Below are positions 9,623-46,443 of a stretch of 64,000 bases of DNA, one piece after another (position 1 is the stretch's first letter; every line of letters starts with the position of its first letter). The stretch is taken from NCBI GenBank assembly GCA_965214095.1, contig OZ243938.1, positions 2,272,001 to 2,336,000 on the forward strand, in the 5' to 3' direction. A program made the translations under genes and the position numbers. The DNA comes from Candidatus Poribacteria bacterium (GTDB lineage Bacteria > Poribacteria > WGA-4E > WGA-3G). Below the pieces are notes generated by a model. That model was not told the origin of the DNA and made no database searches. It saw only the letters and a program-made list of their open reading frames with translations.

Positions 9623-10624
9623 CTACAACAAGAGTTCTTCTGCAATTTGGATTGCATTTAAAGCTGCACCCTTACGAAGATTATCGGCAACAACCCACAT
9701 ATTTAATCCGTTTGAAATGGATATGTCTTCACGAATACGTCCAACATATACATCATCTTTCCCAGCAGCTTCTATCGCCATGGGATACTTGTAGTTGTCC
9801 GGATCATCTATCAGCTGCACACCAGGAGCATCTGCAAGACATTTATGTGCTTCAGCAGGAGTAAGTTTTTCATGGGTCTCAAGGTTAATTGACTCTGAAT
9901 GTGCAAAGAAAACTGGCACACGTACAGTAGTTGCTGAAACACCGATAGTATCATCAGAAAGGATTTTATGGGTTTCATTGACCATCTTGAGTTCTTCTTC
10001 GTTATCACCGGTGTCAGTAAAGGGCCAATCAAAAGCGACATTAAATGCCATCTGATGCGGAAAACGATCAAGAGTGATAGGTTTGCCTTCTAACGCTTCG
10101 GTTGTTTGTAGAATCAATTCATTCACTGCCTGACCACTCTTACCGGAAACACTTTGATAAGTAGAAACAACAATTCGTTTGATTCCAACAGCATCATATA
10201 TCGGTTTGAGTGCGACCATCATCTGTATGGTTGAACAATTTGGATTAGCAATAAGTCCGTTATGTTTGTGTGCAGCATCCATATTGACTTCAGGCACAAC
10301 TAAAGGCGTGTTATCATCCATACGGAAAGCACTCGTATTATCAATAACCAATGCCCCTTTATCAACTGCTGTTGGCATGAATTCTCGACTGACTGATGCC
10401 CCCGCCGAAGAAAAGACAAGGTCAACATCATCAAACGAGTCGTGAGTCAATTCTTCTATGACGATGTGTGCCCCTTTAAAAGTTAAGATTTCACCTGCAG
10501 ATCTGTGAGATGCCAGCAGTTTCAGACTCCCAACAGGAAAAGCGCGTTCTTCTAAAAGCCCCAACATAGTGTTGCCAACTGCCCCTGTTGCCCCGACAAT
10601 CGCAACACGATAACTCTCATTCAT
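9623..10624 (-). CDS. asd: Aspartate-semialdehyde dehydrogenase
   Basis: VGATGAVG, NPNCST, RVPV, DNLRKGAALNA. Confidence 0.97.
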   Translation of the reverse strand: MNESYRVAIVGATGAVGNTMLGLLEERAFPVGSLKLLASHRSAGEILTFKGAHIVIEELTHDSFDDVDLVFSSAGASVSREFMPTAVDKGALVIDNTSAFRMDDNTPLVVPEVNMDAAHKHNGLIANPNCSTIQMMVALKPIYDAVGIKRIVVSTYQSVSGKSGQAVNELILQTTEALEGKPITLDRFPHQMAFNVAFDWPFTDTGDNEEELKMVNETHKILSDDTIGVSATTVRVPVFFAHSESINLETHEKLTPAEAHKCLADAPGVQLIDDPDNYKYPMAIEAAGKDDVYVGRIREDISISNGLNMWVVADNLRKGAALNAIQIAEELLL

Positions 10625-10927
10625 CTTATTTTACCTCAAAGTCTATCTTTTCTAATTATATAATAATGTTACCACAAAGTTAAGACTTAAGCAAACCTGT
10701 TTTACAACACGCATTGGTGTGATATAAGCGAGTTTCGCTAAATATTGATAAATCATACAAAAATTAACATTAAAAACCCTATTTATGTAGATAAATACTA
10801 TATTGAAGCAACCTGAATAGTAACCAAATTTGCTAAACATCGTTATTAGTAGTAAGCAAATGGGATTCCTGCGTTATTTAGCGTGGAAAACTATAATGTT
10901 AAGTTGTTTTGAAGTGAATTAACTAAC

Positions 10928-11340
10928 AATCCCACTGCTTTCGCTGTGGGTCTAACCACATAAACTCGTACGGGAGTATTTTAAGTCATTTGAGAAAAGC
11001 AAGGCTCTATAGTGTAAGTCGAACCGAAGTCCACACTACGCAGATAGTCAACTGGCACCGTATCTATGGGAAGTGTGCAGATAGTAAAACTTGGCGGATC
11101 CCCAGAGGGACAAGTTGCGGTAGACATCATCGCCCGAGACGCTATCTTATCAAAGAGATTTAAGATGCGACGTGCGAATCACTCTTTAACCTCGCGGTAG
11201 GGTATACCGAGAGACTAAACGCCTGTGGAGTCCAAGTTAGACCTCATGCAGTTCAGGAAGGAGGCACGAGAGATGGAAGCAGGAATCACGCTGGTTGTGT
11301 GTTAAAGAGGGAAACGACTTTAGTCGTCGTGAGTATCACA
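10928..11340 (+). mobile_element. ORF-less IS200/IS605-derived element carrying group II intron-like RNA segments
   Basis: LE-like hairpin CCCACTGCTTTCGCTGTGGG (10931-10950); intron DI-like block 11010-11137; omegaRNA-like block 11194-11290; RE-like hairpin ACGACTTTAGTCGT followed by GAGTATCAC(A). Boundaries approximate. Confidence 0.6.
11010..11190 (+). ncRNA. Group IIB (chloroplast-like class) intron domain-I-like RNA fragment plus a GUGCG 5'-end-like motif
   Basis: GTAAGTCGAA...CGCAGATAGTCAACTGGC...GGCGGATCCCCAG...GGTAGACATCATCGCCCGA resembles, from recall, DI of cyanobacterial-type IIB introns. GTGCGAATCACTCTTTAAC at 11172-11190. No clear DV/DVI. Confidence 0.5.
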
Positions 11341-11360
11341 CATCCAGTTGTACCTTGACA
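11194..11360 (+). ncRNA. TnpB omegaRNA (reRNA)-like scaffold plus putative guide
   Basis: GCGGTAGGGTATACCG...AACGCCTGTGGAG...TAGACC...GGCAC...GAAGCAGGAATC is the typical tnpB 3'-end/RE pattern. The guide would be ~11341-11360. Confidence 0.65.
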
Positions 11361-11383
11361 ATGTTGGGGAAATATAGTATCCT
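11355..11383 (+). promoter_or_regulatory. Sigma-70-type promoter of hup
   Basis: TTGACA-17 bp-TATCCT. Confidence 0.6.
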
Positions 11384-11571
11384 ATAGATAGAAACTATTT
11401 TATTTCAAGAAGAACTTAAGACATTCTATATAATTTTGTTGCAAGTTGGGTAGTTTCTATCAAATTTAACTTTTCAGTCAGATGCAATGTAATCATCTTA
11501 TGTAAATTCAAAACTTATATGTGATTATTGTTTGACTGTATATATATTCTTTATCAAAAGGAAGTTGAATC

Positions 11572-11856
11572 ATGGCTAAGAAATTGATGAAAGACGACAT
11601 CATCAACAGTGTCGCTGACAAAGCAGAACTTACCAAGAAAGATGCCGCCGCTGCTGTTGAAGCGTTTACAGCAACTGTTCAAGACGCTTTGGAGAAAGGC
11701 AATTCAATTGGACTCATTGGTTTTGGTACGTTTGAAGTCAGAACCCGTGCTGCTAGAGAAGGTCGCAATCCGCAAACCGGTGCACCTCTCAAAATACCTA
11801 AGAAAAAGGTTCCGGCATTCAAAGCTGGTAAGAAACTTAAAGACGCTGTCTCCTAA
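11572..11856 (+). CDS. hup: DNA-binding protein HU
   Basis: [21 protein letters not shown]...[14 protein letters not shown]. Confidence 0.97.
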
Positions 11857-11880
11857 ATGAAGTCGTTTGACTTATTTTTG

Positions 11881-11923
11881 AAAGGTCGTGGAATATCATT
11901 TATTTCCACGACTTTTCTTTTTT
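11881..11923 (+). terminator. Rho-independent terminator of hup
   Basis: GTCGTGGAA...TTCCACGAC stem followed by TTTTCTTTTTT. Confidence 0.85.
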
Positions 11924-45000: not shown

Positions 45001-46423
45001 CATATCTTCGGTGTCAAGACCCCGATGCTTTAGCACGGGGATGTAGACACCGCTAACACATTTATGAATCAATAAGACTTAACATTTTCGTGTATTTGTA
45101 GTATACTATATTCAGCATTACAGTTGTGGATATGACCTCTCGCTTGAGAGTGCCACCGCACCATTTCATAGCAGTATGTAATGCGAAGGATATGTAATGC
45201 GAACCTACAAATACAAGGGACAAAAACATAAAAGAAATCGTCATTTGCAAAAAGACCTGCATATCATTGCCCATGTCCACAACCATTTTGTTGCGTTGTG
45301 GCAACGGCACTACAGGATATATGGACAATGCGAAGGTTACAAGCGACCGAGTGCATTTCGGATGATTAAGCATTTGACAAAACTGAAACGACTTGCTAAA
45401 TATCAACACTGGACGATCCCATATTCTTGGTGTTTGCAAGAATGTATCCAACGCGTTGACAGAGGTTGGAAAAACTTCTTTGAAGGTAGGGCAAAGCGTC
45501 CACCTAAATTTAGAAGTCGGTATAAATACAAATCTATGACCTTTGATGGAAGTCAAGTCAAAATAGAACCCATTGACAAAACAGGCGGATGTCCCGTAGC
45601 GAAAATCCGTATCAATAGAAGATGGTATCGCTTCTGGTATAGTAGACCGATTGAAGGAAAGATTAAACAGGTTACCGTTAAGAAAGACGCAGTAGGCGAT
45701 TGGTATATCACTATCACAACAGACGCTGAAGGACTTGAGCCTGCCCCTAAGACTGGTAAGACAGCAGGGTTTGACTTTGGACTCAAGGATTTTCTCACCT
45801 GTTCCGATGGCACGAAGTATCAATCTCCTGAATTCTATAAGTCTGCTTCTAAACTGATAAAACGTGCGAGTCGTGCGTTGTCTCAGAAGCAGAAAGGCAG
45901 TAATAATCGCCACCGTGTGAGGAAATACTCGGCACGCGTTCACAGAAAAATCAATCGGCAACGCGAAGACCATCACTGGAAACTTGCTCTTGAACTTGTT
46001 CGAAAGTTTGATGTCTGTTTCTTTGAAGACCTGAATCTTGAAGGCATGAAACGTCTTTGGGGACGTAAAGTCTCTGATTATGCCTTTGGCGACTTCATGC
46101 AGAAAATCAAGTGGCAAGCACAGAAAAGATGCAAACGCGTTGAAACAATTAACAGATGGACACCTACAAGCAAAGTCTGTCATGCCTGTGGACAAATCCA
46201 AATGTTCTTTGATCTGAGTATTCGCAATTGGTATTGCCATAACTGTAAAATCCAACATGACCGTGATATAAACGCGGCACTTAATATTTACAAGGTAGGG
46301 GCATCTACCTTTGGAGTAGAGGGGATCAGACTTGCTTCGGCAAGCACCCCTTGTTGATACCACAATCTACCCTGTGGCATGGGACCTAAGAATCCCCATG
46401 CTTTAGCAGGGGGAGTATGTCAA
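45001..46423 (+). mobile_element. Non-autonomous IS200/IS605-family element (tnpB only, IS1341-like)
   Basis: LE hairpin CCCCGATGCTTTAGCACGGGG (45020-45040); RE GAAT-CCCCATGCTTTAGCAGGGG-GAGTATG-TCAA ending at 46423; TTAT immediately 5' of 45001. Confidence 0.88.
45197..46357 (+). CDS. tnpB: RNA-guided endonuclease TnpB
   Basis: RPPKFRS; RuvC GFDFGL, FEDLNL, DRDINAALNI; zinc finger CHAC...CHNC. Confidence 0.95.
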   Translation: MRTYKYKGQKHKRNRHLQKDLHIIAHVHNHFVALWQRHYRIYGQCEGYKRPSAFRMIKHLTKLKRLAKYQHWTIPYSWCLQECIQRVDRGWKNFFEGRAKRPPKFRSRYKYKSMTFDGSQVKIEPIDKTGGCPVAKIRINRRWYRFWYSRPIEGKIKQVTVKKDAVGDWYITITTDAEGLEPAPKTGKTAGFDFGLKDFLTCSDGTKYQSPEFYKSASKLIKRASRALSQKQKGSNNRHRVRKYSARVHRKINRQREDHHWKLALELVRKFDVCFFEDLNLEGMKRLWGRKVSDYAFGDFMQKIKWQAQKRCKRVETINRWTPTSKVCHACGQIQMFFDLSIRNWYCHNCKIQHDRDINAALNIYKVGASTFGVEGIRLASASTPC

Positions 46424-46443
46424 CTTCCATCCACTGTTTTATT
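46292..46443 (+). ncRNA. TnpB omegaRNA; guide is the antisense of the hisS 3' end
   Basis: Hairpins AAGGTAGGGGCATCTACCTT, CTTGCTTCGGCAAG and the RE hairpin; guide after TCAA is CTTCCATCCACTGTTTTATT. Confidence 0.75.

Follow-up and report, generated by a model that had tools for sequence, protein, structure and literature searches.

A gene-less IS200/IS605-family element of Candidatus Poribacteria with an omegaRNA scaffold and a conserved, covarying RNA fold

We report an element lacking any gene, yet carrying the scaffold of a guide RNA, in a 64,000-nucleotide stretch of a Candidatus Poribacteria genome (GCA_965214095.1, contig OZ243938.1, positions 2,272,001 to 2,336,000; this whole stretch is the window). 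The element, 426 nt in length and lying at window positions 10914-11339 on the plus strand, is a non-autonomous, gene-less member of the IS200/IS605 family, that is, one of the palindrome-associated transposable elements (PATEs), and includes an omegaRNA scaffold. A PATE with a guide-RNA scaffold is an already known kind of element. What is new is a conserved, covarying RNA fold of 131 nt, here termed module A (11022-11152), which matches no Rfam family and was found only in elements without an open reading frame (ORF) from a single Poribacteria family. Taking the evidence together, we consider it very probable that the locus is a PATE with an omegaRNA scaffold and module A, which would be served in trans by the TnpB and TnpA proteins of resident elements.

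The limits of the element were set by a search with window positions 10400-11900 against 40 genomes of the genus, which recovered three genomes (G036, G032 and G021; G and L numbers designate genomes and loci) in which the two flanks abut, with ...GTTTTGAA followed immediately by ACATCCAGTTGTAC.... Because these empty sites, which also read ...gttttgaa followed by acatccagttgtac..., join position 10913 exactly to 11340, the element extends from 10914 to 11339 and not, as in the original prediction made from the sequence alone, from 10928 to 11360. The empty sites further place the insertion 3' of TTGAA (10909-10913), the target or transposon-adjacent motif (TAM) in the host DNA that abuts the 5' side of the element, with no target-site duplication. 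Insertion 3' of a short motif without duplication is a signature of IS200/IS605 transposition (10.1101/2023.03.14.532601). In the aligned copies whose 5' end is included, TGAA is followed by a conserved G(G/T)GAAT, the exceptions being two copies with an aberrant left end. The ORF-less state was correctly recognized at the outset: the longest frame inside the element is 57 aa, and a Pfam search of its small ORFs recovered no family, the one match being at chance level (E 0.3). Moreover, a frame is open across module A in just 3 of the 13 copies examined, and none is open in all copies.

Both ends are of the IS605-like type that had been proposed, with hairpins that show compensatory changes. 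The left-end subterminal hairpin CCCAC-TGCTTTCGCT-GTGGG (10931-10950; CCCACTGCTTTCGCTGTGGG), presumably the one recognized by TnpA, is present as first described and covaries among the copies, with pair 28:35 of alignment A1 changed on both sides in 12 of 23 sequences. The tnpA+tnpB elements of this genome have a near-identical left-end hairpin, CCCAAGTCTTTAGACTTGGG, after GTGAAG, and a similar hairpin with the TGAA motif occurs at the loci of all four of its Y1 tnpA genes. The order of TGAA, hairpin, promoter position and CCACAC leader hairpin is likewise that of the tnpB elements. The right end (11290-11339) comprises a degraded GTGTGY/GCACAC hairpin, with three of its six pairs mismatched in the window copy, a second hairpin ACGAC-TTTA-GTCGT (11314-11327) and the terminal GAGTATCAC; the stem ACGAC/GTCGT of the second hairpin is ACGGC/GCCGT in other copies, a compensatory change. 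Thus, the element displays motif-adjacent insertion, subterminal imperfect palindromes at both ends, ends in common with resident tnpA/tnpB elements and no gene of its own. As a tnpA-type left-end hairpin is combined with the absence of a gene, we therefore class it as a PATE carrying an omegaRNA, which would be mobilized by TnpA in trans. A solo left end was also detected in this genome (L006). Genome-wide counts in G000 gave 57 occurrences of the left-end-type motif TGAAGNGAAYT and 87 of RRCAATCCCA, against only 18 of the right-end motif GTGAGTATCA, and several element families apparently share one left-end type there.

By sequence comparison, the 3' third of the element (approximately 11148-11339) is homologous to part of the intact TnpB elements that this genome contains, namely the tnpB 3' end, the omegaRNA region and the right end. 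Two intact tnpB genes of this type are found there (L002 and L003), each coding for a 358-aa protein with OrfB_IS605, Cas12f1-like TNB and HTH domains, along with two broken copies (L007 and L008). The segment 11219-11340 matches seven other places in the genome at 77-87% identity, these four loci included; against the DNA just after the 358-aa ORFs the identity is 87% (L002) and 84% (L003), with the match starting 10 nt past the ORFs. Hence, the homology to the region 3' of tnpB at L002, L003, L007 and L008 upholds the initial recognition of a tnpB omegaRNA-like scaffold. The homologous part opens with a relic of the tnpB 3' end that is non-coding here (11148-11207). In L022 and L026 the blastn homology begins as early as 11148 and overlaps with the final ~59 nt of the L022 tnpB frame; in tblastn the C-termini of longer TnpB proteins (...LAVGHTE..NACGVQVRP) match 11166-11250, with no match to TnpB proteins upstream of ~11166; and, by eye, window GATGCGACGTGCGAAT aligns with GATGTCAACGCTGCAAT, the D-V-N-A-A-I codons of autonomous tnpB 3' ends.

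The relic is followed by stem H1 of the putative omegaRNA, CUCGCGGUA-GGGUA-UACCGAGAG (11191-11213), which is paired in 99.5% of cells across 23 ORF-less copies and is related by compensatory changes to CUCGCUGUC-GGAUA-GACAGAGAG of the autonomous elements. The omegaRNA core (11219-11289) is built of nested helices (11222-26/11279-83, 11230-32/11272-74 and 11240-45/11261-65); in the 23-copy alignment both sides have changed at 7 of the 13 pairs of these core helices (10-12), and helices 9-12 are paired in 83-99.5% of cells. The region overlaps the tnpB 3' end and the right end, runs into the flank and has a conserved secondary structure, the features by which an omegaRNA is known. On position and homology we accordingly treat the 3' third as the likely omegaRNA scaffold, with the presumed guide part being the flanking DNA ACATCCAGTTGTACCTTGAC (11340-11359, a presumptive length). 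TnpB guides are taken from flanking DNA (10.1101/2023.03.14.532601). The DNA after 11339 is identical or nearly so to that after TTGAA in the three empty sites, as would be expected of a homing guide; TnpB would bind the scaffold and direct cleavage next to the TAM. Beyond these elements, an omegaRNA-core-like sequence (...CCTGTGGAGACC...GTCAGTGACTTCGGTTAGCATGGCAGGG...) was observed near position 1500 of L170, L171 and L136 (genomes G095, G103 and G107) with no recognizable element end downstream. It lies between two STAS-domain ORFs in L170 and just downstream of another element's end in L136, and a weak match to module A (24.6 bits) precedes it in G107. This is apparently one host locus across three species and may be an old fossil copy.

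The intervening module A, a conserved structured RNA leader on the plus strand, was delineated by the RNAalifold consensus, covariation and a covariance model. With 19 distinct sequences RNAalifold returns a hairpin, P2 (11035-39/11044-48), and a three-way junction in which P3 (11080-85/11141-46) and P4 (11090-94/11134-38) enclose P5 (11099-102/11107-10) and P6 (11117-21/11129-33). In the MAFFT alignment A2 these helices are paired in 97.5% of cells, as compared to 38-45% when the partners are slid, and 8 of 30 pairs have changed on both sides, as compared to 0-3 when slid. The observed score was reached by none of 500 shuffles, a count that is not a probability as the copies are related. The covariance model R1 scores the place of module A at 152 bits and recovered two diverged versions lacking P5, one in an element with another end type (G024) and the other in a fragment (G067); with these added, double changes are seen at 14 of the 30 pairs. 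No better helices emerged from a scan for alternatives, the minimum-energy fold of the single sequence reproduces P3-P6, and the G-U pairs favour an RNA of the plus strand. A hairpin pointed out earlier, CGC-ATCTTA/TAAGAT-GCG (11140-11168), does exist in the sequence and is paired in 74% of cells, but 11080-85 is a better partner for its 5' arm, and a covarying one, the two forming helix P3. The G067 fragment belongs to a third genus (L135:1430-1620, 51.8 bits); it has the promoter-like box along with the diverged module A, has no recognizable left-end hairpin or omegaRNA, and lies ~130 nt upstream of an endonuclease V gene.

Upstream of module A is a promoter-like sequence, TTGAGA-N17-TGTAAG (10990-11018), a candidate left-end promoter directed rightward. 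It contains TTTGAGA.AAG, which is invariant in the 23 aligned copies, and is placed like the strong promoters, TTGACA/TTGACT-N17-TATACT, of the autonomous elements L037 and L034. Between the genera, the best-conserved segment is omegaRNA stem H1 (identity 0.89), followed by the P3-P6 junction of module A (0.81), the omegaRNA core (0.65), the left-end hairpin (0.61), the linker that joins module A to H1 (0.34) and the right end (0.29). The interior of the element is unique within its own genome and is 88-95% identical among the copies of the genus, which is above the identity of the whole elements; module A is present in elements with three different end types.

The original prediction had read the block 11010-11137 as a rearranged domain I of a group II intron, with GTGCG at 11172 as the intron 5' end, and had posited an IStron of group II type, or else a derivative of a circularly permuted group II ribozyme, whose domain I closing helix, formed by CTCTTTAAC (11182-11190) and GTTAAAGAG (11301-11309), clamps the omegaRNA and may process it. 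A structured, conserved RNA block does separate the left end from the omegaRNA, and the motifs named exist in the sequence; nevertheless, we now regard this identity as scarcely credible. Rfam includes separate models for domains I-IV of group II introns, and at E<=10 neither the element nor 14 further copies matched any group II family. At the gathering score the whole window yields only a tRNA; at E<=10 the region 10700-11560 has three chance microRNA or snoRNA matches, all outside the element core, and the 14 loci with other copies have nothing inside the elements. That no convincing domain V could be discerned was already conceded, and the domain V model RF00029 agrees: it finds none in the region, in the 14 other copies or in the whole 5.2-Mb genome (94% complete), with the control positive in 5 of 14 genomes. 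Module A, moreover, has only 131 nt and five to six short helices, the wrong size for a group II intron, and the element has no intron-encoded protein; what it shares with group II introns, the circularly permuted forms included, is the pentamer GTGCG and a general stacked-helix look. GTGCG itself, though present, is not an intron 5' end: it falls within the tnpB relic, aligns with tnpB codons and is lost in the second genus that has copies of the element, being kept in one genus only.

The proposed clamp, while a pair of perfect complements, is private to the window copy. All nine pairs form in one of 13 copies and six of nine in the other 12, no covariation is seen, and the 10 second-genus copies lack the segment; besides, when the element is shuffled by mononucleotides, 395 of 2000 shuffles contain a perfect 9-bp inverted repeat. 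Nor is GTTAAAGAG an insertion into the right-end hairpin, as it aligns with the conserved loop of the GTGTGY...GCACAC hairpin of other copies. We thus rejected two candidates: a group II relic, there being no domain V, no domain I-IV match and no reverse transcriptase or maturase ORF in any copy, and the 9-bp clamp, which is complete in one copy, does not covary and is within chance. In sum, the ORF-less frame, the IS200/IS605 ends, the omegaRNA and the presence of an additional structured block all stand, and these blocks co-occur, conserved, in other copies and genomes, while the identity given to that block and the mechanism built on it do not.

A known chimera of this general kind is the IStron, which joins a group I intron to an IS605 or IS607 frame and of which ORF-less versions exist. 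Like the window element, IStrons combine a structured RNA with an IS200/IS605 frame and place it beside the guide-RNA region, and the succession of left end, structured RNA, omegaRNA and right end without an ORF resembles that of described ORF-less IStrons and IStron-type PATEs. Module A as a self-splicing group I core is, even so, extremely improbable. None of the 15 copies matches Intron_gpI at E<=10, and 131 nt folded into one hairpin and a single three-way junction are too small for a P3-P9 core. The element bears no group I or II signature and no splice-site context, and its family is mostly intergenic: among 25 distinct flanks, 20 sites are not crossed by an open frame of at least 120 aa. 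Since these 20 insertions lie outside ORFs, splicing is not needed, which tells against a group II intron as well as a group I intron. In the passages covered from papers that mention IStrons, group II introns and TnpB together, no group II IStron is described.

A further alternative makes module A a self-cleaving ribozyme, or else a dedicated site of processing, by which the omegaRNA's 5' end is released from the leader. Its compact three-way junction, the invariant junction and loop bases, its position 40-60 nt upstream of H1 and its retention in gene-less elements would all suit such a role. We nevertheless consider this quite improbable: there is no match to an Rfam ribozyme family, TnpB is able to trim its own omegaRNA, and, among the inner parts, it is the linker to H1 that is conserved least, so that it shows no evident conserved site of cleavage.

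Copies of the element are dispersed across two genera of one family. In four further genomes of the genus the element has full-length relatives of 75-83% identity; we identified 17 interior copies there (six in G003, eight in G020, two in G035 and one in G013), and copies are 90-95% alike within a genome. Such relatives are also present in a second genus of this family, where 8 of 65 genomes have copies. All exact pattern matches in the named species collection come from records titled Candidatus Poribacteria. In 22 of the 26 pattern matches in this collection the right end follows 301-342 nt past the start of module A, which leaves no room for a gene; of the remaining four, three are cut by the end of the stretch and one is without the exact end motif. 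Consistent with this, a pattern scan of the collection for a tnpB-bearing parent with module A returned none (25 stretches, ORF-less or cut), and the same scan of metagenomes returned two stretches, namely a chance match in a large ORF and a truncated gene-less copy. The covariance model, run on 112 genomes of the family and 151 of the phylum, likewise found no tnpB-bearing element with module A, and outside the family (f1) module A was found in 0 of 51. Adjacent to one of the G003 copies, 130 nt beyond its right end, we noted a partial match to HEARO, the IscB-type omegaRNA (L040:1-175, minus strand; 34 bits, E 0.0013), which runs off the edge of the locus.

The two genera differ in what they retain of tnpB. 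The second-genus copies keep a ribosome-binding site, an ATG and ~5 codons fused in frame to ...LAVGHTE, whereas the copies of the window genus instead keep the last tnpB codons. Two different deletion junctions downstream of one and the same block suggest either that module A stood in the tnpB leader of a parent element or that it is a cassette exchanged between elements by recombination. The former origin would also allow module A to be a passenger, namely the 5' leader of a lost tnpB parent that has no function and looks conserved because its copies are young or were spread by recombination. The fused relic of the second genus is what a simple internal deletion of a leader-bearing parent would leave, and the close similarity of copies within a genome is in keeping with recent spread. 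Against this, five helices have stayed paired through compensatory changes in two to three genera, the conservation of module A exceeds that of both the transposon ends and the omegaRNA core, and the block turns up again with three end types and at two different deletion junctions; on balance we think a functionless passenger unlikely.

Several related derivatives were seen alongside. In G031, an ORF-less derivative of ~300 nt of the same IS type (L015:1354-1657) lacks module A: its left end and promoter, with the beginning of the leader, run straight into the final ~50 nt of tnpB, which are followed by the omegaRNA and the right end. The frame opened by the relic ATG of the second genus is open through the whole omegaRNA region in 8 of 10 copies, and in two of the loci it continues into a host gene, coding for an F5/8 type C domain protein (L075:1616-2509) and an HpcH/HpaI aldolase (L071:1579-2568), which could be chance or a translational fusion. 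Most copies with module A have an omegaRNA core with an extra hairpin; in the window copy and those of G035 the core is of the type seen in the resident TnpB elements and was perhaps acquired through recombination.

A number of observations weigh against the explanation that we favour, namely a PATE whose module A serves a guide RNA used by resident TnpB. A single module A sequence folds no better than its shuffles (z +0.44) and is not significant on either strand; hence, the case for its structure depends on covariation among related copies. The omegaRNA has no match to a curated omegaRNA model in Rfam, where release 15 may hold none for this TnpB clade. A consensus promoter scan did not list the left-end candidate, which it missed because the -10 hexamer is weak. 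With filters off, the covariance model gave at best 11.4 bits (E 0.24) across 17 tnpB/tnpA loci, i.e., no module A, and at the sensitivity of BLAST no core with the extra hairpin was found beside tnpB in the 112 genomes of the family. The origin of module A and its link to tnpB expression are both read from a single trace, the ribosome-binding site and ATG of the second genus. The window element is the only full copy in its genome and, with one hairpin near the right end also broken, may be decaying or inactive. Finally, contigs from RNA libraries contain relatives of 10963-11229 at a word depth of 21-165, but these contigs may be DNA and cannot show transcription, ends or strand, and their uncovered flanks are uninformative; as the figures for X17 and X18 are identical, perhaps one data set counted twice, and X22 and X23 come from one study, they represent two or three studies in total.

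Among known systems the closest are the PATEs described by Meers and co-workers (10.1101/2023.03.14.532601), who remark that PATEs "often encode omegaRNAs" for use in trans. The omegaRNA-carrying PATEs agree with the window element in having no ORF, subterminal hairpins at both ends, insertion 3' of a motif without duplication, ends in common with resident tnpA/tnpB elements and a right-end omegaRNA for TnpB in trans. The window element differs in adding, between its left end and the omegaRNA, a covarying domain of 131 nt and a conserved promoter-like box, and in that module A is kept across elements with different ends; the parts of the PATE literature available to us make no mention of a comparable block. 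With the TnpB-only (IS1341-type) elements L002 and L003 it shares the TGAA motif, the architecture of the left end, and a right end with omegaRNA that is 84-87% identical. Unlike them it keeps only ~60 nt of tnpB, from the 3' end, with module A in place of the ORF, and module A is undetectable in those elements.

The element is inserted between two host genes. Starting 16 nt downstream of it is a strong promoter-like site, TTGACA-17-TATCCT (11355-11383), which precedes a gene for a HU-type DNA-binding protein (11572-11856; Bac_DNA_binding, E 6e-34), and on its other side a divergent gene of the aspartate-semialdehyde-dehydrogenase type occupies 9623-10624 on the minus strand. Elsewhere in the window, at 45040-46425, there is a second, TnpB-only IS that is apparently intact, with an ORF at 45197-46357 (386 aa; OrfB_IS605 and Cas12f1-like TNB) and ends of a different type (left-end hairpin CCCCGATGCTTTAGCACGGGG, terminus ...GGGGGAGTATGTCAA).

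We propose that the left-end promoter would transcribe module A, the linker, the omegaRNA scaffold and the flank as a single RNA. TnpB supplied by other elements, such as the two intact 358-aa copies of this genome, would bind the scaffold and be guided by the flank to the empty TTGAA site, and TnpA, for which the genome has four Y1 genes, would move the element in trans. Module A would then be a leader through which an element lacking a gene can make or stabilize its guide RNA without a tnpB mRNA. We advance such a role in driving or stabilizing guide-RNA expression tentatively, at somewhat less than an even chance. A bolder version, which we deem doubtful, is that module A and the promoter-like box constitute a new class of structured RNA, a self-contained guide-RNA cassette that evolved within gene-less IS605 elements. 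If so, the cassette would express, stabilize or process the omegaRNA, or load it onto TnpB made elsewhere; the element would compete for the nuclease without bearing the cost of its gene; and its repeated appearance, with three end types and two deletion junctions, would be a sign that the cassette itself has been selected.

If module A has simply been passed down as a leader, the locus is a PATE of the ordinary sort, and under either view of module A the idea of a group II IStron can be set aside. More generally, gene-less IS605 elements that carry a guide RNA alone illustrate the modularity of TnpA, TnpB and the omegaRNA. If, on the other hand, module A controls the supply of guides, it would represent a natural way of expressing a TnpB guide without a tnpB mRNA, which would matter for the persistence of guide-only parasites and for designing compact omegaRNA expression units.

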